Numbered from the stretch's first letter, positions 5,883 to 57,387 are shown. The stretch is 64,000 nt of DNA from Planctomycetota bacterium (GCA_020638835.1 JACKHV010000009.1:17093-81092), one strand, 5' to 3'. Notes: generated by a model from the sequence alone, not told the origin. Numbers and translations are program-made.

Positions 5883-6219
5883 GATTCGGGGCAGCCTAGC
5901 ACCGCTGGCCGCACGCAGGTCGGAGCCGTGGCCCCCCCGAGCGCGCCGATGTGTGACCCCGACCCCGCCACACACCCCCATTTAACGGGGCGCCCCCTCG
6001 CACCCCGGCCCGGGATCCGTAGGCTGGCGGACCCCGCCGGGAGGACCGTGGCCGGAACCCCGGACGGGTCTAGCAGGGAAGGATCGCCCGTCTTATCGGT
6101 CCTTTCCGGCGGATGCTCCCGACGGAGCTGGATCCCGGGGCCCTCGTCAGCCGAAGAGGGACCGGGGTCCTCGTCGATCTCTCCCCCGATTCGCCCACCC
6201 AGCTCGAAGGCAGAAGCAC

Positions 6220-7245
<1,026 letters not shown>

Positions 7246-7263
7246 GTCCGCGGAAGGCTGATC

Positions 7264-8175
7264 TTGGCGGAAGGACGCTTTTCGACCTTCGACCCGGCGG
7301 TGCTCGACCGCCTGGCCGGTCTCAGCCTCGTGGCGCGCACGGTGGTCGAGGGCTTCATGTCCGGACACCACCGCTCGCCCCACGCGGGCAGCTCCGTGGA
7401 GTTCTCGCAGTACCGCGAGTACGTGCCCGGCGACGAGCTGAAGCGCATCGACTGGAAAGTCTTCGCGCGCTCGGACCGGCTCGTCGTCAAGGAGTTCATC
7501 GAGGAGACGAACCTCGCGCTGCACCTGCTCGTCGACGCGTCGGAGTCGATGGCCTACGGCTCGCTCGACTGGACGAAGTTCGACTACGCGCGCTGGTGCG
7601 CCGCGGCGCTCGGTCAGCTCACGCTGATGCAACGCGACACCGTCGGCCTCGTGCTCTTCGACGACCAGCACAAGAAGCGCGTCTCCCCCGGCAACGGCGC
7701 GCCGCAACAGAAGGCGATCATCGACCTGCTCGAGGGCGCGACCGCGGACGGTCCGACCGGCATCGGCAAGGTGCTGAACTGGCTCGGCACGCGACTCTCG
7801 CGCCGCGGCATCGTCGCGGTCTTCTCCGACTTCTTCGACGACCCCGAACAGATCGTCGGCGGACTGCGCCGCCTGAAGTTCGCCGGCCACGAACCGATCC
7901 TGTTCCAGATCCTCGATCCGCAGGAACTGCGCTTCGACTTCGGCAACCAGATCAAGCTCGAAGGGCTCGAGGCCGCCGGCGCGCTGCGCGTCGACGCGAA
8001 GGCGATCCGCGCGGAGTACCTCGCCGAGATCGAGCGGCACAACGACGCCCTCGCGCGCGAGGCGTCCTCGCTGAACATCGACATCGTGCGCATCGACACT
8101 TCGCAGCCGCTGGACGCGGTGCTGTCGACCTACCTCGCGCACCGTAGCTCGCGCGTCCGCGGAGGTCGTCGCTGA
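7264..8175 (+). CDS. DUF58 family protein (vWA-like), MoxR partner
   Basis: TTG start 7264. HHRSPHAGSSVEFSQYREYVPGDELKRIDWKVFARSDRLVVKEFIEE is the DUF58 signature. The position after MoxR is typical. Confidence 0.88.
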   Translation: MAEGRFSTFDPAVLDRLAGLSLVARTVVEGFMSGHHRSPHAGSSVEFSQYREYVPGDELKRIDWKVFARSDRLVVKEFIEETNLALHLLVDASESMAYGSLDWTKFDYARWCAAALGQLTLMQRDTVGLVLFDDQHKKRVSPGNGAPQQKAIIDLLEGATADGPTGIGKVLNWLGTRLSRRGIVAVFSDFFDDPEQIVGGLRRLKFAGHEPILFQILDPQELRFDFGNQIKLEGLEAAGALRVDAKAIRAEYLAEIERHNDALAREASSLNIDIVRIDTSQPLDAVLSTYLAHRSSRVRGGRR

Positions 8176-10397: not shown

Positions 10398-12772
10398 TGC
10401 ACCTCGCGCTCCTCCAGGACGCCGCCGAGACCGGCATGCGCACCAGCGTGCGCCTGCTCGACCTTCCCGCGCTGTGGGTCGTCGTGCTCGTGCTGCTCCC
10501 CCTGCTCGTCGGGGTCGCGTGGATCGGCTACGCGCGCGAGCGCATCGGCTTCTCGCCGCGCTTGATGCTCTCCGGGCTGCGCGCCCTCGCGCTGCTGTTG
10601 TTGCTCGTCGTGCTGTTCCGACCGGTGATCGTACAGCGCAACGACGAGGTCAAGCCCGCTGAGGTGCTGGTGCTCGTCGACGACTCCGCGTCGATGCGCC
10701 GCGAGGACTCGTACGCGTCGAACGCCGGCCTGCGCGCCGCGCTGAAGCGCTTCAGCGAAGTTCCCGTCGAGCGCACCGCGCGCATGGAACTCGCGCGCAA
10801 GGCCGTCGAGACGGAACTGATGCCGCTGCTCGCGCGCGGCGAGTACCGCGTCCACGGCTACCGCTTCTCGCGCGACCTGACGCCCGCCACCGAGCCGCTC
10901 GAGCTGACGGGGCGCGGTCACGCGACGCACGTCGGTGAAGCGATCGAACGCGCGCTCGCGCTGCACCGCGGCGAACACGTCACCGACATCGTGCTGGTCA
11001 CGGACGGCCGCTCCAACGGCGGCCCGCCGGCGCTCGACGCGGCGCGCGCCGCCGGGTCGACCGGCGTCCCCGTGCACACGCTCGTCGTCGGCGACACGAA
11101 CCCCGAGCGCAACCTGTGGATCGAGCTCGTCGAGGCGCCCACGGACGTACTCGAGGGCGACGAGATCGCGCTGACGGCCCGCGTCTTCGCGCGCGGTTTC
11201 GCCACGGAGGACGAAGCCGCCTCGCGCGTCCTGCTCGAAGAGCTGTCGCCCCGCGGCGACCGCCTGCTCTCCGAGGAACCGGTCGTCCCGGTCGCCGAAG
11301 GCAGCCGCGTCGTGCTCGTCGCGCCGCCCGGCAACGAGACCGGCGGCGGCGACCGTCGCTTCCGCCTGTCCGTCACGCCCGTGCCCGGCGAGAGCTTGCT
11401 CGACGACAACATGATCGAGTTCCGGGTGCACCTCACGCCGGAGAAAGTGCGCGTGCTCTACGTCGACGCCTACCCGCGCTGGGAGTACCGCTTCCTGAAG
11501 GAACTGCTGAAGCGCTCCGACCAGAACATCGAGGCCAGCATCTTCCTGCTCTCGGCGGAGTCGAGCTTCGTGCAGGAGAGCTCGCGCGGCGTCGAACCGC
11601 TGACCGAGGTCCCGACGGATCGCAAGCAGCTGCTCGAGAACTACGACGTGATCATCCTGGGCGACGTCAACCCCTACGCGATCTCGCCCGACCCGGCGCG
11701 TTGCGAGGAGTTCCTCACGTCGCTGCGCGAGTTCGTCGAGCGCGGCGGCGGCCTGTTCCTGCAAGCCGGCCAGTACGACAACCCGCGCTCGTACGTCGAC
11801 ACGGAGCTCGAGGAACTGCTGCCCGTGCTGCTCGACAAGACCGGCGCGCTCGCCTTCACCGGCGACACGACGGTGGAGAAGCATCCGCTGCTCGAGTCGC
11901 CGAACGCGCCGCACCAGATCGTGCGCCTGCACCCCGACGCGGAGATCAACCGCCGACTGTGGGAAGAGGACGGCGGCCTGACCGGCTTCTACTGGTACGC
12001 GCCGGTCCCGCGCGAGAAGCCGGGCGCGCAGGTCCTCCTGCGCCACCCCTTCGAGGAGTCGGCGTACGGTCGTCATCCGTTGCTCGTCGCGGGCTACTTC
12101 CCCGCGGGCCGCACGCTGTTCTTCGCGCTCGACTCGACGTGGCGCTGGCGCTACCGCTTCGGCGACTACTACCACGAACGCTTCTGGCGCGACGCGATCC
12201 GCTGGCTCGCGCTCGGTCGCCTGAAGAGCGGTGACCGCCGCTCGCGGCTCGACTCGCTGCGTTCCTCGTACAGCCTGGAGGAGCGCGTCGTGCTCGAAGC
12301 GCGCGTGCTCGACGAGGACTTCCGCCCGTCCGAACGGCCGGTGCAGAGCGCGCGCCTCGAAGACCCCGACGGTGAGCTCAGCGAGCTGTCGCTGGTACTC
12401 GTTCCCGACCGTTCCGGACTCTACCGCGCCGCGCTCGAGGTCGGTCGGCCCGGCGTGTACCGCGCGTGGCTCGAAGAAGACGGGCAACGCACGGCCAGCA
12501 CCGAGTTCGAGGTCACGCTGCCTTCGCGCGAGAACGCCGACCCGACGCCCGACCCCGAGCTGCTCGCGTCGATCTCCAGCCTGACGGGCGGCCGCGCGCT
12601 GCACCTCGCGGAGATCGCACAGCTCGACTCCGAGTTCCCCGGCGGCGAAGAACGCCGTGAACCGATCTCGTCGCAGCTCGACGACGTGTGGGACAACTGG
12701 TGGACGCTGCTGCTCGCCCTCGCGTTCCTGTCGGCCGAGTGGATCGGTCGCAAGAAGTGGGAGATGGTGTGA
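10397..12772 (+). CDS. Membrane vWA protein with GATase1-like (ThuA-like) domain
   Basis: ATG 10397 overlaps the upstream TGA. N-terminal TM helices; VLVLVDDSASMRRED MIDAS motif. Later VRVLYVDAYPRWEYRFLKELL...YDVIILGDVNPY...FVERGGGLFLQAG resembles the class-I amidotransferase-like fold common in Bat-type clusters. C-terminal TM helix. Confidence 0.7.
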   Translation: MHLALLQDAAETGMRTSVRLLDLPALWVVVLVLLPLLVGVAWIGYARERIGFSPRLMLSGLRALALLLLLVVLFRPVIVQRNDEVKPAEVLVLVDDSASMRREDSYASNAGLRAALKRFSEVPVERTARMELARKAVETELMPLLARGEYRVHGYRFSRDLTPATEPLELTGRGHATHVGEAIERALALHRGEHVTDIVLVTDGRSNGGPPALDAARAAGSTGVPVHTLVVGDTNPERNLWIELVEAPTDVLEGDEIALTARVFARGFATEDEAASRVLLEELSPRGDRLLSEEPVVPVAEGSRVVLVAPPGNETGGGDRRFRLSVTPVPGESLLDDNMIEFRVHLTPEKVRVLYVDAYPRWEYRFLKELLKRSDQNIEASIFLLSAESSFVQESSRGVEPLTEVPTDRKQLLENYDVIILGDVNPYAISPDPARCEEFLTSLREFVERGGGLFLQAGQYDNPRSYVDTELEELLPVLLDKTGALAFTGDTTVEKHPLLESPNAPHQIVRLHPDAEINRRLWEEDGGLTGFYWYAPVPREKPGAQVLLRHPFEESAYGRHPLLVAGYFPAGRTLFFALDSTWRWRYRFGDYYHERFWRDAIRWLALGRLKSGDRRSRLDSLRSSYSLEERVVLEARVLDEDFRPSERPVQSARLEDPDGELSELSLVLVPDRSGLYRAALEVGRPGVYRAWLEEDGQRTASTEFEVTLPSRENADPTPDPELLASISSLTGGRALHLAEIAQLDSEFPGGEERREPISSQLDDVWDNWWTLLLALAFLSAEWIGRKKWEMV

Positions 12773-15700
12773 GAGCGGCGCTCTGCACGCTCTTCCTGCT
12801 GCTCGGCGCAACGTCCTTCGCGCAGGACGAAGTGCATCCGTTCTCGATCCCGAACACGCGCGGCGCGAGCGACCTGTCCGTCCTCGCGCAAGAACACCTC
12901 ACCGCGCAGCGCTGGGACGAAGCGATCTCCGTGCTGCAGCGCATCATCGACCAACACGGCGGAGCGCTTCTCGGTCCGTCGCGCCCCACGGCGACGCTGG
13001 CGACGGGCACCGAACACAGCCTGCCCAGCCAGCAGGACGTCTACCCCGGCGCCACGGAGTGGGCGCGCCTGCAGCTCGCCGCGCTGCCTCCCGAAGCGCT
13101 CGAGCTGTACGAGAGCCGCTACGTCGGGCGTGCGACCAGCACGCTCGAACAGGCGCGCGAGGACTTCGACCAAGCCGCGCTCGCCGAGCTCGCCGAGCGT
13201 TGGCCGCAGACGGGCGCCGCGCCCCTCGCCTGGTGGAGCCTCGGCGACCTCGAGTTCGAAGCGGGACACATCGACGCCGCGCGCTTCGCTTGGGCGCGCG
13301 CCTTGCGCCGCGAACTGCAAGCGCCCGATCTGCACCTCGCGTCGTCGGAAGACTGGTTCGATGCGCTCGCACAGCGGAACGCAGCACTCGGCGAAGCGGC
13401 GCCCGGGGTCACGCGACGCGTCGAGATCGCCGCCGCGACCTACGACCCGCTGTCGCCGTGGGCCTTCGCCTCCGGCGGTCGCGACGCACGCACGAGCGAG
13501 CTGCGCATCTCCGGTCCCGGCGAAGGCGCGCCCCTGCTCCCCGGCGCGGACGCCTCGAGCTGGCCGCGTTCGTTCCCGATGCCGCCGCAGCCCTTCCAGT
13601 TCCAGGCCGACATGCTGTGGCATGCGGTCAGCGCGGACGACCTGGTGCTGTTCAGCACGTCGAGGAGGCTCGTCGCCGTGAACATGTGGTCGGGCCGCGA
13701 ACAGTGGTCCAGCACGGAAGCCGCGGGCTGGGAACGCATGGGCGAGCGGGACCGCAAGGAGTACGAGCTCGGACTCGACAAGCGCGACGCACTCTTCGCG
13801 CCGGCCGTGGCCGACGGCATCGTCGTCGCGCCGCTGCAGGTTCCCTACTCGGAGTACCGCAACGAGGACTACGACAACATCCCCATCCTGCGCATCATCC
13901 CTGAGCGACGCCTGTTCGCCTGGGACGTGCAGACCGGCGAGGAACTCTGGAACCACGACATCCCCGACTTCTGGGACGGTGAGTCGGGCAGCTTCGCGCA
14001 ACGCATGCGCGTCGCGGGTCCGCCGGTGATCGCGGCGTCGCGCGTGCTCGTGCCGGTCTACCGCCTCGAGGGACGCATCGGCTTCCACGTCGCGTGCTAC
14101 GACCTGACTTCGGGTCGCCTCCTCTGGTCGCAACAGGTCATCAGCGGCCAGCGCGAGCTGAACATGTTCTCGCGTCCCGGCTGGGCGTTCTCCGCGCCGC
14201 CCGTGCGCGTCGAGGGCGACCGCGTGATATGCCTCACGCAGCTCGGGACGCTCGCCAGCCTCGACCTGTTCACCGGCGCGCTGCAGTGGGAAACGCTCTA
14301 CGAGCAGCTCCCCCTCCCCCGCCGCCGTTCCTTCGACGCGGACCGCCGCCCGGCGACGTGGCGCAACACGCCTCCGGTCGTCGCGGACGGCGTCGTGCTC
14401 GCCACGCCGGTCGACAGCGACGACTTGATCGCCGTCGACGTCGAGACGGGTTCGATGCTGTGGAGCCTGCGCCAGAGCAAGATCTCACGCGACGCCGAGG
14501 GCTTCCCGCCGGACGTCGACCTGCTGCTCGGCGCGGACGACGAGACGGTGTACCTCGGCGGCCGACGCCTGATCGCGCTCGAGCGCGCCGGCGGCCTGCG
14601 CCTCGGCGTGCCGCGCCGGCGCTGGTCCTTCGGCGAGGCGAAGATCCGCGACGAGGACTCGCGCGCCTGGCCCGTGCTCGCCGCGGACCGCATCGTCGTC
14701 CCGACGACCACGGCGCGCCTCGAGATCGAGCGCAAGCAAGGGCGCCTGCTCTCCGACACGCCGTGGACCGCCGGTCAGGGCGGCAACCTGCTCGCCGTCG
14801 ACGGCGCGCTGTTCACGCTGAACAGCCGGCACCTGTCGGGCTACTTCGAGTGGGACGTGCTGCTCGAACGCGCGCGCCGCGACCACCGCGGGGCGCCGCA
14901 GGCGCGCGACACGGTCCGCAACCTGGCCGCCCTGCTCGCGGAACGCGGGCGCAACGACCAACGCGCCGGCTACACCGAGAGCGCGCGCAGCTGGCTCGCC
15001 GAGTCCGTAGACCTGCTGACGGAGTTCCGCGCGAACCAGACCGCCGAGGCGGACGCCGAGCTGCTCGCGGAGCTGCACAACGCGCTGCGTTCCTACGCCG
15101 AGGTGCAGAGCGACCTCGCGGACACGCGCGGCGCGCTGCGCTCGCTCGAAACCGCCCGCGTGATCTCGCCCGACCGCCGCGCGCTGCGCGACACGCTGCT
15201 CCAAGAGGTCTCCTTGCTGCGCAAGCGCGACGACGTCGCGTGGCTCGAAGCGCTCGGGCGCCTCGAACAGCAGTGCGGAGACTTCCAGCTGCGTTGCGCG
15301 GTCCAGACCTCCGGCGCGGAGGAGTTCCCCGTCCGACTCGTGCCCCTCGACCCGCGCGAACAGGCCTTCGAGCGCGACGAGCGCACGGTGCCGGTCGGGC
15401 TGTGGGCGTCGCTCGAGCGCGCGGACTACTTCGCCACGACCTTCGACGTGCAATCGGAGCTCGAGGAACTGCATCACCAGCTCTACATGTGGCCCGACGA
15501 GGAGACGCCTTGGGGCACGGTGCGCGAGATGGCCGAGGCGTTGATCGCCGAGCGGCTGTCGGTACACGGTCGCGGCGTGTACGCGCCCTACGACGAGGCC
15601 GCGCGCCAGCGCTACGACGAAGCGCTCGCCGCCGGCGACCGCGCCGCGCTCGAGGCCGTCCCGCTGCTCTACCCCTTCGCCGCCGCGTCCGAAGAAGCGA

Positions 15701-17322
15701 ACGACGCGCTGCTGAAGCTGGCGCTGGAAGAAGGCGACCCGACGGCGGTCGCGCGCACGGTGCTCAGCGAGCTGCCGGAGGAGTGGAACCCGGCACGCGC
15801 GACGGCACGCGAAGCGATCCTGGCGCTGCACCTCGGCGTCGCACTGGCGCGCGAAGGGAACGAGTCGTACCTGCGCGGACTGCTGGGACGCCTCGCGTCA
15901 TCCGTGCCGCGCGCCGTCTCGCCCTTCCCCGAACACGAGGGCCGCACGATCTCCGAGGTCTACGCGAGCCTCGGTCCGGAACCGCGCCCCACGCCCGCCC
16001 CCGAGCCGACCTTCGGCTCCGACCTCCGCGCGAAGGCGCGCGTGCAGGGCGACCACGAGTACCTCGGCGAGCTGCTCCCCTCGCCCGGCACGCCTCCGAC
16101 GAAGCGGCTCTTGTTCTCGCGCTACCACGACGGCCGCTCGTCCTTGCTCGCGCTCGACGCGCAGCAACCCGAGAAGCCGCTCTGGGAGAAGCTCGAAGAG
16201 CAGAGCCGCGGGAACCGAGTCAGCCTGGTGGCATTCGTCCCCGGCCGCGCCCTGATCGCAACGCGTGAGACGCTGCGCGCGTTCGACGCCGACAACGGCG
16301 ACGTGCAGTGGACCTGGCGGCCGAACGCCGGTGACATCCGCAGCGTGCGCGCGGCACGCGGCCTCGCGATCGTCGTCGCTTCGCTACCGGCCGGCGCGCG
16401 TCAGCTGTTCGCCGTCGACGTGACCACCGGCCGCACCGTCTGGAAGCGCGCGCTCGCGACCGGCCTCTACCACGCGGAGCCGCTCGTCGGAGAGGATGAA
16501 CTCGTCTTCCTCCCGAACGTCGCGCGACGCCGCGGGTTGGTCGTCGACCTCTACACCGGCGCGAAGCGGATGGACCTCCAGTTCCCGATCGTGCTGCAGA
16601 ACGACGCCTTCCGCGCGGCGTGGATCGAGGACGGTCTGCTGATCGTCCCGTGGTTCCACGAGTCGCGCGACCCGGACCGCAACCAGGTCGTCGCCGTCGA
16701 CCTCGACAGCGGGCGCCAGGCGTGGCGTGTCGCGCTCGAAGACGTCGCCGGCGGCGGACGCGAGCTGAACCGCGTGCTGCGCTGGGCTGGCCGCACCTTC
16801 CTCAGCCTGCTCGACACGCACGCCCCTCCGGAAGGCCGCGCGCCCGGCATCCTCGTCGAGCTGCACACGAACCTCGGCGCCACGGCCGAGCTCTCCGGCT
16901 ATCGCTTCGACGAACGCTTCTGGGAACTCGGCGGCAGCGACCCGCGCCTCGAGCTCGAGAGCCCCTACTGGTTCCAGCTCTCCCCCGCGCCGGGCGACCT
17001 GTTCTTACACGCCGTTCACCTGCCCTTCGGGCACGAACGGTGGGCCTCTCGCTTGCAGCTTTCCGACGAGGGGCTGTACAACGGAATGGTGCCCGTGCCG
17101 GTGCTCTCGAAGGACACCGTCGCGGCGATCGTCGTGGTCCGGAAAGACGGAAGGGGTGCCGACTGGCAGTCGATGCTCTATCTGTTCGGACGCGACGACG
17201 GCACGCCGCGCGGCAATCAGATCCTGGGACCGTTCGATCGCGCGGGTGGCGCGCTGGGGCTCTACGGGCTCGGCGATGCGCTGGTCGTGATCGGCGACGG
17301 CGGATTGAAGGTGATGCGATGA
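12769..17322 (+). CDS. Very large (1517 aa) exported PQQ-like beta-propeller / helical repeat protein
   Basis: GTG 12769 overlaps the upstream stop (GTGTGA). Signal peptide VRAALCTLFLLLGATSFAQD. There are many G-x-x-x-W propeller turns (TGEELWNHD, SGRLLWSQQ, TGALQWETL, TGSMLWSLR, NGDVQWTWR, TGRTVWKRA, SGRQAWRVA), separated by a long Ala/Leu/Glu-rich helical middle region. Confidence 0.7.
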   Translation: MRAALCTLFLLLGATSFAQDEVHPFSIPNTRGASDLSVLAQEHLTAQRWDEAISVLQRIIDQHGGALLGPSRPTATLATGTEHSLPSQQDVYPGATEWARLQLAALPPEALELYESRYVGRATSTLEQAREDFDQAALAELAERWPQTGAAPLAWWSLGDLEFEAGHIDAARFAWARALRRELQAPDLHLASSEDWFDALAQRNAALGEAAPGVTRRVEIAAATYDPLSPWAFASGGRDARTSELRISGPGEGAPLLPGADASSWPRSFPMPPQPFQFQADMLWHAVSADDLVLFSTSRRLVAVNMWSGREQWSSTEAAGWERMGERDRKEYELGLDKRDALFAPAVADGIVVAPLQVPYSEYRNEDYDNIPILRIIPERRLFAWDVQTGEELWNHDIPDFWDGESGSFAQRMRVAGPPVIAASRVLVPVYRLEGRIGFHVACYDLTSGRLLWSQQVISGQRELNMFSRPGWAFSAPPVRVEGDRVICLTQLGTLASLDLFTGALQWETLYEQLPLPRRRSFDADRRPATWRNTPPVVADGVVLATPVDSDDLIAVDVETGSMLWSLRQSKISRDAEGFPPDVDLLLGADDETVYLGGRRLIALERAGGLRLGVPRRRWSFGEAKIRDEDSRAWPVLAADRIVVPTTTARLEIERKQGRLLSDTPWTAGQGGNLLAVDGALFTLNSRHLSGYFEWDVLLERARRDHRGAPQARDTVRNLAALLAERGRNDQRAGYTESARSWLAESVDLLTEFRANQTAEADAELLAELHNALRSYAEVQSDLADTRGALRSLETARVISPDRRALRDTLLQEVSLLRKRDDVAWLEALGRLEQQCGDFQLRCAVQTSGAEEFPVRLVPLDPREQAFERDERTVPVGLWASLERADYFATTFDVQSELEELHHQLYMWPDEETPWGTVREMAEALIAERLSVHGRGVYAPYDEAARQRYDEALAAGDRAALEAVPLLYPFAAASEEANDALLKLALEEGDPTAVARTVLSELPEEWNPARATAREAILALHLGVALAREGNESYLRGLLGRLASSVPRAVSPFPEHEGRTISEVYASLGPEPRPTPAPEPTFGSDLRAKARVQGDHEYLGELLPSPGTPPTKRLLFSRYHDGRSSLLALDAQQPEKPLWEKLEEQSRGNRVSLVAFVPGRALIATRETLRAFDADNGDVQWTWRPNAGDIRSVRAARGLAIVVASLPAGARQLFAVDVTTGRTVWKRALATGLYHAEPLVGEDELVFLPNVARRRGLVVDLYTGAKRMDLQFPIVLQNDAFRAAWIEDGLLIVPWFHESRDPDRNQVVAVDLDSGRQAWRVALEDVAGGGRELNRVLRWAGRTFLSLLDTHAPPEGRAPGILVELHTNLGATAELSGYRFDERFWELGGSDPRLELESPYWFQLSPAPGDLFLHAVHLPFGHERWASRLQLSDEGLYNGMVPVPVLSKDTVAAIVVVRKDGRGADWQSMLYLFGRDDGTPRGNQILGPFDRAGGALGLYGLGDALVVIGDGGLKVMR

Positions 17323-27248: not shown

Positions 27249-27343
27249 TCCACCGTAGCGCCGACGACTTGGCCGGCCGACGCTCCTCGTGACCCGAGGT
27301 GCATCGCGCGTTGCGGCAGGATCTCTTCCCCACGAGAAGGTCC

Positions 27344-29122
27344 ATGTCGGCATCCGCTCTCCAGCGCTCGCGGCCCGCACCGCGATTCGCGTTCGTCGCG
27401 TTCTCCCTCCTGGCCGCGCTCGCCCCGAGCTGCGGCGGTGAGGACCCCACAGATTCCAGCGCTCCGGCGGCAAGCTCCGTACCGCAGTCGATCGAGATCG
27501 TCGATCCGGAGCCGCGCATCACCGACCTCGAGACGGTCGAAGACCTCTCGGAAGAAGTCGCCGATTGGCTGCTCGACTTCAGCGACGAGCTGCAGCGGCG
27601 CGAGTTCGGCGACGCCCGCGCCTGGTTCGCCGACGACTTCGCCGGGCATACCTTCGCGCCGCTGCCGGAACTCGGAACGGATGCCCTGACCAAGGACGCG
27701 CAGCGAGTCCGCTTCGACACGAGCAAGGCGGCGATCCTCGGACCGGACGACTTCATGGGCGCGGTCGGGTCGCGCATCGCCGACTGGAGCCGCGTCGAGC
27801 TCGTGCTGTGGAAGGTCAAGGGCGCCGAGTTCCTCGCAGGTTCGGGAACGCGCGTCGGGAAGATCAAGCTCTACCTCTCGCACATCGGCACGCTGGTCAG
27901 CGGCGGGCGCGCGGAGTTGAGTGGATGGGCGTACTGCACCGTCGAGAAGCGCCGCGGCTCGTGGTTCATCACGCGCCTGCGCCTCGACTCGCTGCAGCTC
28001 GAGACGACCGAGCGCGCGTGGTTCACCGACGTCTCGACGTCCACTGGCGTTGCGCATCGAGGCACGCGCTTCGGCAAGCCCGGCAACAGGAGCTTCGCGT
28101 GGAACGGCGCGGCGGGCGGTGACGTCAACGGCGACGGCTACTGGGACGTCTTCGTCCCGAGCGACGGACGCAACTACCTCTACCTCGGCGGGCCGGACGG
28201 TGTGTTCGAGGAAGTGGCCGAGGCGCGCGGTGTCGCGTTGCCCGCAGCCGGGACCGGTGCTCTCTTCTTCGACCGTGACGGAGACGGCGATCAGGACCTG
28301 ATCGTCGGACACGACGCCTGGGTCTCGAAGCAGGGTGAGGTCGAGGGGCGAGCCCCGGCCTTCTACGAGAACGACGGTCACGGGAGCTTCGTCGAGCGCG
28401 GCGCGGCGCTCGGGCTCGGTTGCTACCTCGGGCCGTGGTACTCGCTGTGCGCGCTCGACTTCGACTCGGACGGCGACCTGGACGTGTTCGTCTGCGGCTA
28501 TGGAACGGTCGCGAAGGAGCACAACAACAGCTGGATCGAGGCGACAAACGGTGCGCCGAACTTGTTGCTCGAGAACCGCGGCTCCGAGGGCTTCGTGGAC
28601 GTGGCCGGCGAACTCGGTATCGCAGGTCGCTCCTGGTCCTACGCAGCCGCCGCCGCGGACTACGACCAGGACGGTGACACCGACCTGTACGTCGCGAACG
28701 ACTACGGCACGAACCGCCTGTGGCGCAACGACGGCACGGGAAGGTTCGTCGACGTGGCCGGAGAGCTCGGCATCAAGGACGAGGGCAACGGCATGGGCGT
28801 CACCTTCGGCGACCTGAACCAGGACGGCGTTCTCGACCTCTACGTCTCGAACATGTCGTCGACCGCCGGCAACCGCATCCTGGGACGATTGCAGGACGAC
28901 CTCGATCCCGAGCTGCACGCGACGCTCAAGAAGCTCGCAGCCGGCAACACGATCTTCCTCTCGGGCGCCGAGGCGCGCTTCGCACAGCTGCCGAGCGCGG
29001 CCGGCGGCGTGAACGCGAGTTGGGCCTGGAGCGCGGTACTGCGCGACTTCGACCTCGACGGGTGTCTCGACATCTACTGCGCCAACGGATACGTGACCGG
29101 CGACTTGGCGCACGACACATGA
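27344..29122 (+). CDS. CRTAC1/ASPIC-family FG-GAP/VCBS repeat lipoprotein, N-terminal segment ending at an in-frame TGA
   Basis: ATG 27344 after a GAGAAGG RBS (the ORF opens at GTG 27299). Lipobox-like LLAALAPSCGG. VCBS/FG-GAP loops: GDVNGDGYWDVFV, FDRDGDGDQDLIVG, LDFDSDGDLDVFV, ADYDQDGDTDLYVAND, GDLNQDGVLDLYVSN, FDLDGCLDIYCANG. Confidence 0.8.
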   Translation: MSASALQRSRPAPRFAFVAFSLLAALAPSCGGEDPTDSSAPAASSVPQSIEIVDPEPRITDLETVEDLSEEVADWLLDFSDELQRREFGDARAWFADDFAGHTFAPLPELGTDALTKDAQRVRFDTSKAAILGPDDFMGAVGSRIADWSRVELVLWKVKGAEFLAGSGTRVGKIKLYLSHIGTLVSGGRAELSGWAYCTVEKRRGSWFITRLRLDSLQLETTERAWFTDVSTSTGVAHRGTRFGKPGNRSFAWNGAAGGDVNGDGYWDVFVPSDGRNYLYLGGPDGVFEEVAEARGVALPAAGTGALFFDRDGDGDQDLIVGHDAWVSKQGEVEGRAPAFYENDGHGSFVERGAALGLGCYLGPWYSLCALDFDSDGDLDVFVCGYGTVAKEHNNSWIEATNGAPNLLLENRGSEGFVDVAGELGIAGRSWSYAAAAADYDQDGDTDLYVANDYGTNRLWRNDGTGRFVDVAGELGIKDEGNGMGVTFGDLNQDGVLDLYVSNMSSTAGNRILGRLQDDLDPELHATLKKLAAGNTIFLSGAEARFAQLPSAAGGVNASWAWSAVLRDFDLDGCLDIYCANGYVTGDLAHDT

Positions 29123-29151
29123 AGCACCTATTGGCGCCACGTGGTGGCGTC
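29120..29151 (+). other. In-frame UGA plus downstream hairpin: candidate Sec codon / bacterial SECIS-like element (alternatively a nonsense mutation)
   Basis: TGA at 29120-22. Ten nt later comes the hairpin GGCGCCAC-GUG-GUGGCGUC (29133-29151): 8 bp including one G-U pair, with a G-first apical loop about 19 nt after the UGA. The flanking ORFs are in the same frame. Confidence 0.4.
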
Positions 29152-30232
29152 CTCGGTCGACAAGGAGAGCGCGTGCGAGTCGTTCACCGCACAAGAAGTC
29201 GGGAGCAGTAGCTACCTGAACCGGCACAACTCGCAGATGTTCAGCGAGGGGCGGTCGTTCAGCGGGAACGAGCGCAACAAGCTCTACCTGAATCGCGGAG
29301 ATGCGAGCTTCCTCGACGTCAGCGCGCTCTCGGCGACGGACACGCCGGCCGACGGTCGTGCGGTGCTCGCGGCAGACTTCGACGACGACGGCGACGTCGA
29401 CCTGTTCGTGCACAACCTGCAGCGTGAACGGCACAACTTGTTCCGCAACGACCTCGCCACCGGCGGCTTCCTGAAGCTGCGACTCGTGGGACGCACCGGG
29501 AACCCCGAAGCGGTCGGCGCAACGGTCGTCGTGCACGGGCCTCGTGGTCCCGTCGCGCAGGTGCTGTCGCGCGGCGACGGCTATTCGTCGTGCCAGGTGC
29601 CGGAGTTGATCTTCGGTCTCGGCGCCGCGAAGTCCGCAGAGGTCGTCGTGCACTGGCCCGGCGGCGCGACGGAGTCCTTCGGTGCGCTCGCTTCCGGCGC
29701 ACGCTGCGTGCTCGTCGAGGGCAGCGGCGAGGCCCGCTCGTTCGAAGCCCGGTCCGCGCGTCTCCCCGACCCCTTGCCGCTCGGACTCCAGCTGGGCGTC
29801 GGCCAGCGCGTTCCCGACTTCCGTGCACTCGACCGAGACGGGAATGAGGTCGTCGTGTCCCCGCGGCGCCTGGCGGGCGGCAAGCGCCTCCTCTTGAACT
29901 TCTGGGCGAGCTACTGCGGACCGTGCGTCGCGGAGCTGCCCGTGCTTCAGCAACTCGACGAGGCTGAGGATCAGGTCGTCGTCGCGATCAGCGCCGACGC
30001 GCCCGCGGACCGCGAGCACGCGCGGGACATCTTCGAGCAGCGCGGCGCGAAGTTCGTCTCCTACTACCTGGGCGCCGACGAGGCCGCGGACGCGGAGCTC
30101 GGCACGGTCGCAGACGTCGTCGACCTCCTGCGCCTACCGATTCCGACGACGCTGGTGCTGTCGGCCGAAGGAGAGGTGCTGGAGATCATCCGCGGTCCGA
30201 TCCCCGCCGTACCGAGCGAATCCTCGCGATAG
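29141..30232 (+). CDS. Continuation of the CRTAC1/ASPIC protein: UnbV_ASPIC-like domain + TlpA-like thioredoxin domain
   Basis: Same frame as 27299-29122. NERNKLYLNRGDASFLDVS, DFDDDGDVDLFVHN and GDGYSSCQVPELIFGLG...VVVHWPGG are ASPIC/UnbV-type. LLLNFWASYCGPCVAELPVL is a CxxC thioredoxin fold. GTG 29141 is only the first possible restart. Confidence 0.8.
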   Translation: MVASSVDKESACESFTAQEVGSSSYLNRHNSQMFSEGRSFSGNERNKLYLNRGDASFLDVSALSATDTPADGRAVLAADFDDDGDVDLFVHNLQRERHNLFRNDLATGGFLKLRLVGRTGNPEAVGATVVVHGPRGPVAQVLSRGDGYSSCQVPELIFGLGAAKSAEVVVHWPGGATESFGALASGARCVLVEGSGEARSFEARSARLPDPLPLGLQLGVGQRVPDFRALDRDGNEVVVSPRRLAGGKRLLLNFWASYCGPCVAELPVLQQLDEAEDQVVVAISADAPADREHARDIFEQRGAKFVSYYLGADEAADAELGTVADVVDLLRLPIPTTLVLSAEGEVLEIIRGPIPAVPSESSR

Positions 30233-30253: not shown

Positions 30254-30289
30254 GGCAGCAGCCCCCGGTCCTCGCCGGGGGCTGCTGTC
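30254..30289. terminator. 15-bp GC-rich hairpin between convergent genes (I-shaped terminator candidate, no U-tract)
   Basis: GGCAGCAGCCCCCGG-TCCTCG-CCGGGGGCTGCTGTC pairs by hand with one G-U. It lies between the stop at 30232 (+) and the stop at 30349 (-). Confidence 0.45.
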
Positions 30290-30348: not shown

Positions 30349-31905
30349 CTACATCCAGTCGACGGTCAGACCGTTGGTGAAGTTGGAGCCGGTGCCGCAG
30401 GGGCTGACGCCGCCGGGGTCGCGGAACCACTGCTGGTAGTAGCGCGTGTCGCCGGGAGAGACGTTGCCTTCCGTGACGATCGAGACCGTCGTGCTACCGG
30501 CGCCGGCCGCGTCGGTGAAGACGACCTCGACGCGCTCCGTCGGGTTGCCCATGCAGAACAGGCCGTCCTTGAACGGGATCGCCTGCAGCGTCGCACCCTG
30601 GACCAGCAGGCTCGGCTGGTTCTGGCGCGCTTGCGAGATGTGGAAGACGAGGTCGTCGTTGCCGACGAAGCGGCTTCCGGAAGTCGTCAGGATCGCGCCG
30701 ACGCCGACGCTGCTCTTGCAGCCCTCACCCGAGTCCAGGACCGACTCGTTCAGGCAGGGGCACGCACCCGAGCTGCCGTCACCGAAGCAGAAGGCCGTGG
30801 CGGCCTCCGGGATCGACTCCAAGGCGAGGCCGCGCGGACCACCGATGTCGGGGACGCCGGCAGCCGTGTCGTTGTAGAGCTCGAAGGTCTCCGTGAGCGG
30901 GTCGATGACGCCGTCGGTGTTCGTGTCCGTCATGAACAGCAGGCGGTCCGGATCCTGGGACTCCGACGCGTAGAGGTTCCCATTCGCGTCGACGATGACT
31001 TCCCACAGCAGGCTGGCTCCGGCGGAGTCCCAGTAGAGCGTGTCCTCGGTTCCGACGTCGATCACGCCGTTCATGTTCGAGTCCTTGGCGCGCCAGACCA
31101 GGTCGTTGCCCGTGTCAGCGATGTACCAGTTCCCGGCGGAGTCTTGCGCGAACGCCCACCAGAACGGGGTTTCCGCTTGAGGAGCGGGGAGGAAGTACGG
31201 CGTCGCCTCGCCGGGCTGGTCGATCATGCCGCTCGAGTCGAGGTCCTCGAGCACGTAGATCCCCTTCGCCAACGGGCTCGAACTCGCGCCGGATTCGAGG
31301 TAGTACATGCGCCCGTCGACACCTTGGATCACGTCAAAGGGAGCCGAGATCGAAGGGGTGGGGATGTTGTAGTACATGACCGCTTCCCCGGCGTCATCCG
31401 CGTCACCGTCCGCGTTCAGGTCCTGCAGGTAGAAGATCGTGTCGTCCGGTGTGGATCCGGCGCCCGCGTTGGCGACCCAGAGCTTCCCCGTGTCGTCGAA
31501 GTTGATTCCGTTCGGCGAGTTCCCCGCGATGCCGCTCACGTTCGTCAGCGGATCGCCGTTGAAGAAGAGCTTCGCCTCGCCCGCGTCGTGCGCGTCTCCG
31601 TCGCCGTTCAGGTCCTCGAACACGAAGATCGAGTCGCTGCCCGTGTCGGACATGTAGACCTTGCCGTCCGCGGCCACCGCGATGCTCACGTTGAGCTGAA
31701 TGTCGAGCACGCCGCCGATGATCTCGTCGTAGAACTCGGTGATCTCACCGGCGTCGTTGTAGTTGCCGTTCCCGTTGAGATCCTCGCAACGCCAGATCTT
31801 GTCGTTGTTCGTGTCCGTGACGTAGATCGGCGCGATGGTCTGCGCCGAGGCTTGCGATGCGGTGGCGGCGGCAAGGAGCGCCGCGATGCGGTAGTGAGCC
31901 TTCAT
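30349..31905 (-). CDS. Exported repeat protein (DLNGDGD-type loops) with Cys-rich C-terminal module, paralog A
   Basis: Signal [21 protein letters not shown]. Repeats [57 protein letters not shown]-terminal [16 protein letters not shown]...GCKSS...FKDGLFCMG...[31 protein letters not shown]. Confidence 0.65.
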
Positions 31906-38967: not shown

Positions 38968-40287
38968 TCACAACCCGAGGATCACGACCCGACCCGCGCA
39001 GTTGTCCGCCCTGGGATCGCCCAGCATCAGCTCTTCGTGCGCGTCGGACGGATCGACGTCCCCGCGGTCGACGCCGAAGGCCCAGTAGGCCGCGCCCGGC
39101 GGCATCGGCACGATCACAGGCGGCTGCGAGAGGTCCGCGGACTCCCACACGTGCACGTCGCGGTCGTCGATGGAGATCACGGCGAGGTCGGGCGTGGAGT
39201 CGCCGAGCAGGTCGACGAGGCTGACGTCGAAGCCGAAGAGGCCCAGGTGCGATGGACTCGCGTCGGAGACCTGCTGCACGTTCGAGAGGCCCGCGCCCGA
39301 GAACAGGAACGCGGCGCCGGAGTCTTCTTGTTGACCGCCGGGGCAGGTCCAGCCGAGCGGTTCCTTGCGCTGCGCGCTCACCGCGACCATGCCGTCGCGC
39401 GCGTCGAAGCCCTTGCCGTAGCGCGGACCGAAGTCGCACGGCACGACGTTCGGATCGTCGAGCCGCAGCGGCGCGGGGACGGCGACGCCCGCGGGGGCGA
39501 TCACCGGCGAAGGATGCACGTACACGGCGCCGGCGAAAGGGGCGCCGACCTGCGCGTTGCCTTGCGCCGAGACGATCAAGTCGAGCCAGCCGTCGCCGTC
39601 GACGTCGTCGACCTTCAGCTTCTGGCCGTACTGTCCGCGATAGCCGAGCCCTTGCGCGAAGCCGGGGTTGACGATGATGCGCTCGGTCGTGAGCAAGCTG
39701 CTGAAGACATGGACCGTGCCGACGCTGACGACGCCGCCGACGTCGGAGCGTCCCGCCCCCACCGCGAGGTCCGGCGAGCCGTCGCGGTCCAGGTCGCCGA
39801 CCGCGACTCCGGTGCCGAAGGCCGTCACGCCGGGTCGCCAGCTCGAGAGCCGGCGCAGAAGACGAGTCTTCGAGTAGATGTGAATCTCGCCGCGACCGCC
39901 GCGCGCCCTGGTCGCCCCGATCACGATTTCGTCGCCGGGAACGCCGTCGAGCTCGCCGGCGGCCAGCGACGCGCCGAAGAAGTCACCGGGGCCGTGCGGG
40001 CAGCCGGTGAAGAAGCCCTCGGGTTCGAAGCTGACGACCGTCGGGTTCGCGAAGTCGGGCCCGAGGAAGACGTGCACCGCGTCCTGCCCCGGCTCGGCGA
40101 CGGCGACGTCCTGCGCACCGTCTCCGTCGAAATCGAGTACCAGCACGCGGTGACCGAACTGACCGCCGCCCTCCGGGCAGCTGTCCGAGACGAGCGGACA
40201 GGGCGGCGTCAGGATCGTGTAGTCCTGTGCCGAAGCGAGCGCGGTGAGCGCGCAGCAAGAGATGGCGGTGTGCGGCGGAGTCGACAT
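38968..40287 (-). CDS. Exported FG-GAP (integrin-alpha-like) repeat protein
   Basis: Signal MSTPPHTAISCCALTALASAQD. FGHRVLVLDFDGDGAQDVAVAEPG, FGASLAAGELDGVPGDEIVIGA, FGTGVAVGDLDRDGSPDLAVGA, YGQKLKVDDVDGDGWLDLIVSA and FGFDVSLVDLLGDSTPDLAV are FG-GAP repeats. Confidence 0.8.
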   Translation of the reverse strand: MSTPPHTAISCCALTALASAQDYTILTPPCPLVSDSCPEGGGQFGHRVLVLDFDGDGAQDVAVAEPGQDAVHVFLGPDFANPTVVSFEPEGFFTGCPHGPGDFFGASLAAGELDGVPGDEIVIGATRARGGRGEIHIYSKTRLLRRLSSWRPGVTAFGTGVAVGDLDRDGSPDLAVGAGRSDVGGVVSVGTVHVFSSLLTTERIIVNPGFAQGLGYRGQYGQKLKVDDVDGDGWLDLIVSAQGNAQVGAPFAGAVYVHPSPVIAPAGVAVPAPLRLDDPNVVPCDFGPRYGKGFDARDGMVAVSAQRKEPLGWTCPGGQQEDSGAAFLFSGAGLSNVQQVSDASPSHLGLFGFDVSLVDLLGDSTPDLAVISIDDRDVHVWESADLSQPPVIVPMPPGAAYWAFGVDRGDVDPSDAHEELMLGDPRADNCAGRVVILGL

Positions 40288-40315
40288 GCGGGAGATCCCG
40301 ATCGATCCGCCGAGT

Positions 40316-41467
40316 CTAGCTCTTCTCCGCCGCGCTCGCCTGCAGCTCGCCGACGAGCAGCTCGCAGTCGATCGCGCCGTTCTTGAGCGCGACCGTCTCG
40401 AGGCCGTCGAGCTTCAGCGAGCGCGCGAGCTTCGTGTTGCCCGAGAGCAGCGCGATGTGGTAACCGGTGCACTGGTCGCGCAGCTTCTCGCCGAGCTGTC
40501 GGTACAGCGGCCAGAGCCGGTCGACCTCGCCTACGCGCTCGCCGTACGGCGGGTTCGTCACGATCCACGCGTTCCAGCCGGACTTCGCGGGGAACCGCAG
40601 CGCGTCCTTCTGCTCGAGCGTGACGAGGTCGGCGGCGCCGGCCGACGCGAGGTTCTCTCGCGCGCCCTCGAGCGTCTCGGCGCTCTGATCCAAGCCGATC
40701 AGAGTCAGCTTGGACGGGAACTTCACGCGCGCGCGAGCTTCTTCTCGCATGCGTTCCCACGCGTCTTTTCGGAAGCCGGGGAGGCGCTCGAAGGCGAAGG
40801 ACTTGCGGAAGCTGCCCGGCGCGACGCCACCCGCGATCAACGCGGCTTCGATCAAGATCGTGCCGGAACCGCAGAAGGGGTCGATCAGCGGCGCGCGGCC
40901 GTTCCAGCCCGAGCGCAACACCATCGCGGCCGCCAGCGTCTCGGACAGCGGCGCGCGTCCTTGGAACTTGCGCCAGCCGCGCTTGTGCAGCGAGACGCCG
41001 GAAGTGTCGATCAGCAGCGAGCAGCGGTTCTTCGTGAGGTGCGCGACGATGCGCAGGTCCGGGTCTTCCTTGTCGACGCTCGGCCGCCGGCCATCGTTGG
41101 CGCGGAACTGGTCGCAGATCGCGTCCTTCACGCGTTGCGCGACGAACAGCGAGTGATCGATCTCCGAGTCCTTCGCGTGCCCGTCGACGACGAGCGTCCC
41201 GGCGGCGCTCATGTACTTGGACCAGTCGACCGAGCTCGCTCCGCGGTGCAGCGCGTCCGCGTCGCGCGCAGTGAAGCGGACGACGCGCATCAGGACTCGC
41301 ACGGCGGTACGCAGCTCGAGGTTCGCGCGCCACGCGTCTTCGATGCGGCCTTGGAAGGCGACGCCGCCGACCTGACGCTCGACCTTGCCGAGCCGCAGGC
41401 GGTTGCACTCCTCGTGCAGGATCGGTTCCAGACCGGGCGCGCAGGTGATGAAGAAGTGGGAGTTCAT
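40316..41467 (-). CDS. THUMP-domain class I SAM-dependent RNA methyltransferase (RlmL/Trm14-like)
   Basis: ATG 41467 (MNSHFFITCAPGLEPILHEE...). THUMP-like N-terminus, PLIDPFCGSGTILIEAAL motif I and IVTNPPYGERVG motif IV. Confidence 0.8.
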   Translation of the reverse strand: MNSHFFITCAPGLEPILHEECNRLRLGKVERQVGGVAFQGRIEDAWRANLELRTAVRVLMRVVRFTARDADALHRGASSVDWSKYMSAAGTLVVDGHAKDSEIDHSLFVAQRVKDAICDQFRANDGRRPSVDKEDPDLRIVAHLTKNRCSLLIDTSGVSLHKRGWRKFQGRAPLSETLAAAMVLRSGWNGRAPLIDPFCGSGTILIEAALIAGGVAPGSFRKSFAFERLPGFRKDAWERMREEARARVKFPSKLTLIGLDQSAETLEGARENLASAGAADLVTLEQKDALRFPAKSGWNAWIVTNPPYGERVGEVDRLWPLYRQLGEKLRDQCTGYHIALLSGNTKLARSLKLDGLETVALKNGAIDCELLVGELQASAAEKS

Positions 41468-46096: not shown

Positions 46097-46834
46097 TCAG
46101 CAAGAGCCCGATTGCGCCCCCGAGTGCACTATGACTCGTCCCACAGCCGCCGACCGCGGCGCGGCCTCCACGGGAATGGCGCGATGGTGGCGCTTCCAAC
46201 CGTGCGAGAGCTTCCACCCGCCCCGCACCACCACCTCGCCCTCGCCGCCCGCCTCCCGCTCCGGCGGCCTCCCCGCCCAACCGTCGAAGTAGCACCCCGA
46301 CGAGTACACGTCCGGCTCGCCCACCACGCCGCACGGGTCGTGCAGCGTGCCGTGCTTCAGGTGGTTGTTCAGCACGTACACCAGCGCGTTGCGCACCTCG
46401 CGCAACGACTTCAACACCCGATCATGGAAGCGCTCGCGCAACACCCTTCCTGTGCGACGCCAGATCCCGTTCAGCGCCCGCGCGATCCGCGAGTTCAGCC
46501 CCTTCATCCCGTTCGACAGCGCCGACTTGCTGTCCGCTTCGATGATGAAGTGCACGTGATCGCGCTGGATCGAGTAGTGCACGATGCGGAAGTCCGCCCG
46601 CTGCGCGTCCCGGATGCAGCACGTCACCGCCCGCGCCTCGAGCCACTCGCGCAACCACGGCAAGCCCTGCGCCAACTTGATCGTCACGATGCGCGGGTCG
46701 TGCCGCGACACCCGCTCGCGCGCCGCGTGCGCCACACCGCTCTTGCGCTTCGGCCGCCCGGCCCCCTTGCGGCGACCTCCGTGCGTGCGCGGTTCGGGGA
46801 ACTCGAAGTCGGTCTGTTGCTGTATGCGGCGCAC
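46097..46834 (-). CDS. Y1/HUH tyrosine transposase-like protein (RAYT type), copy 2
   Basis: HYSIQRDHVHFIIEA (HUH), VRNALVYVLNNHLKH (Tyr helix), GGRRKGAGRPKRK basic N-terminus. GTG 46832-46834 (VRRIQQQTDFEF...) aligns with the copy 1 start. The open frame runs on to 47254 through the repeat, which I regard as non-coding. Roughly 55-65% aa identity to copy 1 by eye. Confidence 0.8.
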   Translation of the reverse strand: MRRIQQQTDFEFPEPRTHGGRRKGAGRPKRKSGVAHAARERVSRHDPRIVTIKLAQGLPWLREWLEARAVTCCIRDAQRADFRIVHYSIQRDHVHFIIEADSKSALSNGMKGLNSRIARALNGIWRRTGRVLRERFHDRVLKSLREVRNALVYVLNNHLKHGTLHDPCGVVGEPDVYSSGCYFDGWAGRPPEREAGGEGEVVVRGGWKLSHGWKRHHRAIPVEAAPRSAAVGRVIVHSGAQSGSC

Positions 46835-46863
46835 ACTACTTAGAACGATGCGCGCGGCGTGAA

Positions 46864-46910
46864 GTTCGCGATAAGTGCCGGATTCTTGCGCTATTCGCCG
46901 AATGGACGCA
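46864..46910 (-). repeat. Conserved 47-nt leader upstream of RAYT-like copy 2 (matches 5029-5075)
   Basis: 41/47 identical to the copy 1 leader, with the same spacing from the GTG start. Confidence 0.8.
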
Positions 46911-46993
46911 CAACCGAGAATCCGTGTCCGGGAGGTTTCGGTCGTTGGAATCGGCGTTCGTCGTTCCGCGTTGGTTCTCGGACTTTGGTCGTC

Positions 46994-47226
46994 GGTCACG
47001 GCTGACGCCGCGCTTCGCTCGAGCTCCGCCAAGGGCTCCGCTCCGCGCGGCTCGCTGGGCGCTTGGCGTGACGCGGCATCGGTCGCTTGCCGGCCGCCGA
47101 TGCCATCGCACGACAACACCGCCGTTATCAAGTTCGAGACGCGCCGCACCCGACCCCGCTGACGTGAAAGCGAGCCCCGCGAGCGGAGCCCTTGGCGGAG
47201 CTCGAGCGAGCGGGGCGGCACCGCGA
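46994..47226. repeat. 233-bp giant-hairpin element, copy A (REPIN/BIME-like or MITE-like)
   Basis: 47015-47043 (TCGCTCGAGCTCCGCCAAGGGCTCCGCTC) is the exact reverse complement of 47181-47209. Imperfect pairing extends the stem to about 45 bp. About 96% identical to copy B. Confidence 0.85.
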
Positions 47227-47505
47227 CGACCAACGACCAATGACCAATGGCCAACGACCGACCGCCGACGACTGACGATCAACGGACGACGACCAACTCC
47301 CGAGGTCGTCTGCCGGCCAGTGCGTCGACTTCAGGTTGCGGCGATCACCGGCGCTGACTTGTCGCTTTCTGACCGCGATCATCACCGCCACTGCGTGGTC
47401 GCCTTCAGCTCGCAACCCTCGCCGTCACTTAGTGCTCGTCTTCAGATCGCGGCATTCGCTGTCGCTCACTCGGCACTCGTCGTTGGCCGGTGATCGTTGA
47501 TCCTT

Positions 47506-57240: not shown

Positions 57241-57387
57241 CATTCCTCCCGAGGACCGTCGTGCGTCGCAGCGGCACCGCGTCCGGAGGCTGCAGGGGTG
57301 AGAGAGTAGCCGACGCCCCGCGGGCGGCCAAGCGCTCGTGAAGCCGGAGCGAGAGCGGCGCGATGCCGCGCGGGAACGGCGTTCTCC

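Follow-up and report, generated by a model that had tools for sequence, protein, structure and literature searches.

A gene on the plus strand of a 64,000-nucleotide stretch of Planctomycetota bacterium DNA (GCA_020638835.1, JACKHV010000009.1:17093-81092; called the window in what follows) very probably encodes a selenoprotein. The complete gene spans positions 27344-30232 and contains a single in-frame UGA (TGA, 29120-29122), which we propose is decoded as selenocysteine (Sec) at residue 593 of one 962-residue protein ending at a TAG stop (30230-30232). We assign this interpretation a probability of about 0.88 because coding sequence is conserved up- and downstream of the UGA, homologs with cysteine at the same column exist, and a hairpin downstream of the codon falls within the published limits for the bacterial Sec insertion sequence (bSECIS) and combines covariation with frozen synonymous sites. 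A previous inspection of this stretch without database searches (the sequence-only reading) had left the choice between a selenoprotein candidate and a very recent pseudogene, with a leaning to the former; the conserved frame, the Cys (TGC) homologs, and the hairpin favor the candidate, and the recurrence of the same TGA in related genomes excludes the pseudogene.

The UGA separates two open reading frames (ORFs) that share one frame. The upstream ORF (27299-29122, plus strand) terminates with the TGA, and the downstream ORF spans 29141-30232. As the sequence-only reading described, translation of the frame from 27299 to 30232 meets one internal stop, in the context ...YCANGYVTGDLAHDT-stop-STYWRHVVASS... 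(GDLAHDT before the stop), and 76 related loci show this two-part arrangement of the frame as well. The likely start is the ATG at 27344, where the N-terminus (MSASALQRSRPAPRF...) agrees with those of homologs (for example, MSASAPHRPRRAPRL in P0001). The GC content at third codon positions (GC3) is 0.88 upstream of the TGA and 0.87 downstream. We also considered a global reassignment of UGA and rejected it, since TGA is the main stop codon of the window. It ends 14 of the 18 other confidently placed genes, including eno, nusA, and infB, in line with the earlier description of TGA as an ordinary stop in this region. Furthermore, the selenoprotein gene of the relatives often has TGA as its real terminal stop, which argues against reassignment.

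Conservation of the UGA codon and its hairpin

Protein databases hold this gene in two pieces. A search with the fused sequence returned, among its best 120 matches (43-87% identity), 119 proteins of approximately 590 amino acids that end at exactly the same residue (...DT); these 119 share 47-87% identity with the query. All of the best 120 matches to the C-terminal half were separate proteins of approximately 357 amino acids, with names such as 'redoxin family protein', 'thiol-disulfide isomerase/thioredoxin', and 'ASPIC/UnbV domain-containing protein'. To read the codon itself, we used the DNA of 80 loci from one-genome-per-species contigs, 79 of which cover the site. TGA occupies the column in 76 of them, and the codons that come next in frame encode S-x-[YFH]-W-R-[HQ]-V-V. 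The frame then stays open for approximately 360 amino acids or more in all loci except truncated or masked ones, and a W..xCxxC thioredoxin motif lies approximately 260 residues after the TGA in 69 of the 70 complete Sec-form loci (the exception is L063). The loci come mainly from metagenome-assembled genomes (MAGs) of Planctomycetota but also from Verrucomicrobiota, Acidobacteriota, and Eiseniibacteriota, and their protein identity to the window reaches down to approximately 40% or less.

The codons right after the TGA vary as translated sequence does. In the subfamily that includes the window protein (59 sequences), three of them vary synonymously and keep their residues: Ser (AGC, AGT, or TCG), Thr (ACC, ACG, or ACT), and Tyr (TAC or TAT). 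Such variation between the TGA and the next GTG shows that these codons are translated in frame.

The hairpin (29133-29151, plus strand) lies within the coding sequence. It starts 10 nucleotides after the TGA, folds as GGCGCCAC-GUG-GUGGCGUC, and has a 17-nucleotide core (29134-29150) with a 6-bp stem and the apical loop GUG at 29141-29143. In the bSECIS consensus, the stem measures 4-16 bp and the loop 3-9 nucleotides, G occurs within the first two loop nucleotides, the loop lies 16-37 nucleotides from the UGA, and the minimum free energy (MFE) is -7.5 or lower (PMC13188914, Fig. 2A). The window element falls within each of these limits, with a loop of 3 nucleotides that starts with GU, a stem of 8 bp, 18 nucleotides between the UGA and the loop, and an MFE of -12.0 kcal/mol, a value that also holds for the hairpin of its subfamily. 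Across the family, the hairpin starts 10-11 nucleotides after the UGA, and a loop of 3-5 nucleotides (G, then U or G) is placed 17-18 nucleotides from it. A covariance model of the UGA plus hairpin matched the window only at 29120-29161 (62 bits). A scan of the whole window at Rfam gathering thresholds gave no match; to our knowledge, bacterial SECIS elements are not represented among the Rfam families.

RNAalifold, run on 75 sequences aligned between the UGA and position +42, recovered a 6-bp stem (columns 15-20 with 26-31) whose pairs are kept in all 75. The subfamily of the window adds two pairs and has the loop GUG. A second subfamily of 15 sequences, most of them from Verrucomicrobiota, has the peptide WRQVVSQ and the loop GGUCG. 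The minimal SECIS of E. coli fdhF is likewise a 17-nucleotide upper stem-loop, positioned 11 nucleotides after the UGA and with GGUC in its loop. One pair (columns 18-28) covaries without ever breaking: C-G in 59 sequences, G-U in 10, A-U in 4, U-G in 1, and G-C in 1, with U-A in P0402. The two partners are the wobble base of an Arg codon and the opening base of a codon for Ala, Ser, Pro, or Thr, the next but three. The proposal of the sequence-only reading that the 8-bp hairpin is a bacterial SECIS is thus strengthened by the six conserved core pairs, the covarying pair among them, and the agreement with the consensus.

Codon usage in the hairpin is nearly fixed (CGC in 58 of 59 sequences, CAC in 59 of 59, GTG in 53 of 53, and GCG in 59 of 59), and the third-position entropy is 0-0.12 in five of its six codons. 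The codon in the loop is the one that varies (GTG 51, GTT 5, GTC 2; entropy 0.64). Flanking invariant four-fold sites, in Gly, Thr, and Ser codons, have entropies of 1.4-1.7. Relatives with another residue at the UGA column keep the W-R-H/Q-V-V peptide while their codons drift. For example, the Arg form L084 reads CGG CAC GTC GTC CAG and has lost the hairpin (-3.3). Among Glu forms, L055 has also lost it (-2.0), and in L045 it sits in a different register; the Val form L083 has one broken pair. Both Cys forms read from DNA (P0005 and P0402) retain the intact hairpin. As judged from these alignments, the hairpin tracks the UGA and not the peptide. It offers a clear natural example of a peptide constrained by RNA structure, with a near-palindrome that encodes WRHVVAS.

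Some loci of this set deserve mention in their own right. Contigs carrying a Planctomycetota-type gene are filed as MAGs of Glaciecola, Paceibacteria, Paracoccaceae, Pseudohongiellaceae, and Rickettsiales (L009, L015, L024, L043, and L064), which probably reflects binning contamination and not the true distribution. Two paralogous gene copies stand on the same strand in L069 (Verrucomicrobiales; 5873-5914 and 9885-9926) and in L067 (Planctomycetota; 3433-3474 and 11743-11784), each copy with its in-frame TGA and SECIS hairpin (DLUSVYWRQVVS / DLUSFFWRQVVS). L061 has a second in-frame TGA approximately 270 codons after the Sec codon (L061:1579), at the conserved Trp of the thioredoxin motif (...LIAL-TGA-STTCKSC versus FWSTTCVPC in relatives), on a contig with 8x coverage. 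This second TGA is more likely to have arisen from TGG by error or mutation than to encode another Sec.

Residue at the UGA column and protein architecture

Some homologs are continuous proteins with Cys in place of the UGA. P0005 (937 amino acids) aligns over 98% of the query and has QDS-C-STYWRHVVASS where the window has HDT-UGA-STYWRHVVASS. Its codon is TGC, the hairpin is present, and the protein has the same C-terminal thioredoxin domain. Because its nearest relatives all end at ...DT, the Sec column, P0005 looks like a recent conversion of Sec to Cys. Cys is also found in P0402 (961 amino acids; DT-C-SHFWRQVV; TGC) and, at the protein level, in P0326 (DL-C-SFFWRQVV), both with an intact CxxC. 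Thus, the thioredoxin motif is intact in all three Cys forms, as it is in nearly all of the complete Sec forms.

More distant homologs differ in both respects. The 41 non-Sec cluster representatives that span the column carry Glu (9), Ser (8), Ala (5), Asn (4), Asp (4), Arg (2), Leu (2), or one each of Gln, Ile, Gly, and Cys; 3 have gaps. The thioredoxin domain is absent from approximately 25 of them, has a degenerate motif in approximately 11, and is intact in 5. Together with P0410 (Val), an intact CxxC is found in approximately 6 of 40 forms carrying another residue. Two Glu-form loci end right after the ASPIC domain, and Arg forms without the thioredoxin domain have NMCAVEGDRIL in place of the NMSSTAGNRIL of Sec and Cys forms. 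On this comparison, the coupling between Sec or Cys and the CxxC is strong, not absolute. The sequence-only reading had asked whether homologs have Cys at this column and had named non-Cys, non-conserved residues as the outcome that would tell against Sec. The three Cys proteins bear out the first part, and the distant relatives with Glu, Ser, Ala, Asn, Asp, and other residues literally present the second. Sec is not refuted by this; by these alignments, Sec/Cys is the mark of a subfamily tied to an intact thioredoxin CxxC.

Degenerate versions of the motif (e.g., GWPAS, SSPTC, CAPS, and CEES) occur in the non-Sec relatives P0314, P0332, P0334, P0339, P0350, P0353, P0354, P0358, P0373, P0384, and P0386. 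These proteins look like cases in which the redox module decayed after the loss of Sec or Cys.

The N-terminus of the window protein has a predicted signal peptide (27344-27433) ending in a lipobox-like Cys (...LLAALAPSC), as identified from the lipobox motifs of homologs. A canonical lipobox (L-[AS]-[GA]-C) lies approximately 20 residues into 74 of 119 homolog N-terminal halves; APSC in the window protein is a looser match. The product is therefore probably exported and lipid-anchored, judging by these motifs. The following N-terminal domain (27521-28048; residues ~60-235) has no Pfam or NCBIfam match and is conserved throughout the family (EDLSEEVAD... motif). Upstream of the Sec codon are FG-GAP/VCBS beta-propeller blades (28061-29119), with matches above the cut-off to FG-GAP_3 (PF13517; 149.8 bits, in five stretches of the protein) and FG-GAP (PF01839; 65.7 bits). 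They include the motif NMSSTAGNRIL, which is invariant in alignment A1 and specific to forms that carry the thioredoxin domain.

The architecture continues after the Sec codon. A further FG-GAP blade (29276-29416; ...DFDDDGDVDLFVHN, DFDDDGDVDLFV in the window) can be read directly from the sequence, and many C-terminal halves annotated as proteins of their own have a PF13517 entry. Next are a UnbV_ASPIC domain (PF07593; 29510-29698, residues 723-785; 40.4 bits, cut-off 23.4) and a TlpA/ResA-like thioredoxin domain (29798-30205, residues 819-954) matched by Pfam Redoxin (49.5 bits) and AhpC-TSA (38.7 bits). These matches agree with the domain order given by the sequence-only reading. The CxxC of the thioredoxin domain is an all-Cys CGPC (29915-29926, within FWASYCGPC), and the Sec lies approximately 265 residues upstream of it. 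The domain scores below the NCBIfam (release 20) equivalog cut-offs for TlpA (46.7 versus 230), ResA (42.9 versus 170), and DsbE (35.5 versus 123).

The fold was modeled with AlphaFold2 on the Cys homolog P0005, not on the window protein, from a column-checked alignment (A4) of N- and C-terminal halves and full-length homologs. The model (predicted local distance difference test score 92; predicted template modeling score 0.90) has as its best PDB match the crystal structure of murine CRTAC1 (9etn_A; E 1.5e-27, target template modeling (TM) score 0.73 over 623 columns), which is also matched at the sequence level (E 1.6e-20). Its C-terminal domain matches structures of TlpA, ResA, and StoA (target TM scores 0.54-0.70), and its N-terminal domain, roughly residues 49-208, packs one long helix on a curved antiparallel sheet. 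The Sec/Cys column is the first residue of a helix (580-591). Redox-active Cys or Sec residues are commonly found at such a position. A blade-like strand pattern (630-685) follows the Cys column in the model, as does the ASPIC domain. A chain ending at the UGA would thus lack an FG-GAP blade along with the ASPIC domain, and its propeller would be incomplete.

Alternative explanations for the in-frame UGA

Several observations weigh against decoding of the UGA as Sec. All of the relatives are MAGs. The column varies in distant non-Sec relatives, so the residue is not a catalytic one shared by the whole CRTAC1/ASPIC superfamily, and six proteins with neither Sec nor Cys retain an intact CxxC (P0255, P0272, P0322, P0364, P0382, and P0410). 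Pfam scans of essentially all large ORFs in the window found no selA, selB, or selD; the large ORFs matched enolase, MoxR/DUF58/BatA, sulfatase, RlmL, NusA, IF-2, RbfA, cysteinyl-tRNA synthetase, and a Ser/Thr kinase. Neither the window nor the flanking DNA of 60 related loci yielded a tRNA-Sec with ARAGORN. Furthermore, an all-against-all BLAST of the ORFs flanking 75 loci identified no conserved neighbor, as no family was present in more than 8 loci; there was no adjacent CcdA or DsbD among these ORFs to serve as an operon clue. One alternative is that a sense codon (TGC or TGG) became TGA in this genome only, by recent pseudogenization or through a sequencing or assembly error. A lone in-frame stop does resemble a fresh nonsense mutation, and the apparently accidental TGA at the conserved Trp codon of L061 indicates that such events can be found elsewhere in the gene. 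But 76 of 79 species genomes, each assembled independently, have the same TGA, which also accounts for the end of 119 of 120 protein clusters; the downstream frame of approximately 360 amino acids is open and conserved in all these relatives, and protein identities of 40-87% rule out one shared contaminating sequence. We regard this explanation as having almost no probability.

Two other explanations accept the conservation of the site. The gene could be truly split, with termination at the TGA, re-initiation of the ASPIC and thioredoxin chain at the GTG codons in the hairpin, assembly of the two chains, and a role for the hairpin in translational coupling. Gene callers indeed place a GTG start at 29141, within the hairpin, public annotation has two proteins everywhere, and the sequence examined (the window, plus the tRNA scan of the 60 loci) lacks the Sec machinery. 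However, the six codons from the TGA to the GTG keep their amino acids with synonymous variation, which re-initiation at the hairpin GTG would not explain, and the TGC homologs are continuous proteins with the same architecture. The model also predicts that a split would leave one blade of the propeller on the second chain. Both the spacing of the hairpin and its G-first loop are those of a SECIS, and the hairpin decays where the column is Arg or Glu though the WRHVV peptide is kept. Taken together, these points make a split gene improbable. Slightly less probable still is read-through of the UGA without Sec, by near-cognate Trp or Cys decoding or by hairpin-stimulated suppression, to give a full-length, selenium-free protein. 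The computed evidence demonstrates translation of the UGA but not the identity of the inserted amino acid, and the same lack of Sec genes in the window and of tRNA-Sec in the flanks of the 60 loci would fit. Yet TGC, the codon for the chemical analog of Sec, is the only sense codon that replaces TGA among close relatives. The spacing and loop of the hairpin fit the SelB-type model, and the GGUCG loop of the second subfamily contains the GGUC of the fdhF element. Inefficient near-cognate decoding would, moreover, be odd to retain across several phyla. Decoding as Sec is thus the explanation that we retain.

Proposed function, novelty, and genomic neighborhood

The location of the Sec and its association with the fused CxxC suggest a possible mechanism. 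The SECIS hairpin (29133-29151) within the gene would direct the decoding of the UGA, and Sec would be the redox-active residue of an extracytoplasmic enzyme. It could react with a substrate held by the propeller and then form a selenenylsulfide with the CxxC of the fused thioredoxin domain, which would reduce it. We give roughly even odds to such an intramolecular Sec/CxxC redox relay outside the cytoplasm. Our most plausible guess for the substrate is a peroxide or a disulfide/sulfenate-type oxidant. TlpA, ResA, StoA, and DsbE share with the C-terminal domain the Redoxin fold and the W-x-x-x-C-x-x-C motif, and its attachment to an exported protein resembles these membrane-anchored reductants. 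They are stand-alone proteins with ScoI, CoxB, or apocytochrome as clients, whereas the window domain is fused and presumably serves the Sec of its own chain. We know of no report of a biochemical role for bacterial CRTAC1/ASPIC proteins. The association of Sec or Cys with an intact CxxC in the fused domain offers a first functional handle on this group and suggests redox chemistry.

The protein combines features of known families in an unusual way. It shares with the CRTAC1/ASPIC-UnbV family an FG-GAP propeller followed by UnbV_ASPIC, consistent with the match of the P0005 model to 9etn. To this layout it adds the N-terminal domain without a Pfam match, the Sec, and the TlpA-like domain. The bacterial 'CRTAC1 family' forms of approximately 800 amino acids, in contrast, have Arg or His at the Sec column, the NMCAVEGDRIL motif, and no thioredoxin domain. 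Like bacterial selenoproteins with a SECIS inside the ORF (e.g., E. coli FdhF), the window family has an in-frame UGA, Cys homologs at the column, a stem-loop 10-11 nucleotides after the UGA, and a small G-first loop. Its mis-annotation as two genes is also typical of unrecognized selenoproteins. Unlike that of catalogued thioredoxin-fold selenoproteins, however, its Sec lies between propeller blades, outside any UxxC, CxxU, or thioredoxin-fold motif. Catalogued TlpA- and Redoxin-fold selenoproteins have Sec inside a CxxC-type motif, whereas the window protein has an all-Cys CGPC and its Sec elsewhere; the fold and the extracytoplasmic flavor are common to both. The thioredoxin domain matches the model NF041054 weakly (25.5 bits, cut-off 300).

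A review of May 2026 lists 119 prokaryotic selenoprotein families and subfamilies with domain identifiers (PMC13188914, Table 1). None of these 119 families is an FG-GAP, VCBS, ASPIC, or CRTAC1 entry, which upholds the impression of the sequence-only reading that this is not an established selenoprotein family. NCBIfam has no model for the window family, and none of the NF models of the catalogue scored above its cut-off. Full-text searches for literature linking selenoproteins or selenocysteine to FG-GAP, ASPIC, VCBS, UnbV, CRTAC1, or Planctomycetota returned nothing relevant, and the selenoprotein reviews and database papers that we checked do not mention the family. It thus appears to be a widespread selenoprotein family that had not been catalogued. 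Its decoding mechanism would be that of an ordinary bacterial selenoprotein and leaves the understanding of Sec decoding unchanged; what is new is the family and its unusual scaffold. The prokaryotic selenoproteome gains a well-supported, widespread, and probably exported member with a beta-propeller and a Sec context outside the thioredoxin fold. There is also a practical consequence for NCBI and JGI annotation, in which hundreds of records split the gene into a 'VCBS repeat-containing protein' and a 'redoxin family protein' with names and lengths that are both wrong.

A broader scenario is more tentative, and we give it somewhat less than an even chance. It would make these proteins a large, unrecognized selenoprotein family, the first on a CRTAC1-type beta-propeller, comprised of exported lipoproteins of marine Planctomycetota, Verrucomicrobiota, and their allies. 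A catalytic Sec at a helix N-terminus, outside the thioredoxin fold, would be recycled by the TlpA-like CxxC. The many non-Sec relatives whose CxxC is decayed or absent and, by extension, the CRTAC1 lineage could then be redox-dead descendants of an ancestral selenoenzyme.

Downstream of the gene is a GC-rich inverted repeat (30256-30287) with a perfect 13-bp stem (CAGCAGCCCCCGG / CCGGGGGCTGCTG) and a 6-nucleotide loop, read directly from the sequence. It lies between the selenoprotein gene and a convergent gene ending at 30349 and may be a terminator-like hairpin, with no clear T-run. The convergent gene (30349-31905, minus strand) encodes a protein of 518 amino acids for which Pfam has no match; it contains repeated D-x-N-x-D-G-like loops, and its C-terminus is rich in Cys. 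A second FG-GAP repeat protein (38971-40413, minus strand) is unrelated and has no in-frame stop.

Elsewhere in the window, a row of genes for MoxR (AAA_3), DUF58, BatA/VWA, a GATase1-like protein, and a large PQQ_2 beta-propeller (5986-17322) forms a Bat/aerotolerance-type operon. An ORF with a weak match to IS200-like Y1 transposases (46100-47278, minus strand; PF01797, E 4e-7) sits among housekeeping genes. We also identified two long, overlapping antisense ORFs with high GC3 in both (55816-60957, minus strand, and 57310-60894, plus strand). The former is real only in its 3' part, which encodes cysteinyl-tRNA synthetase (residues 1255-1655), and the latter encodes a Ser/Thr kinase with AAA_16 and TPR domains. 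Their overlap illustrates how misleading long ORFs can be at 70% GC.

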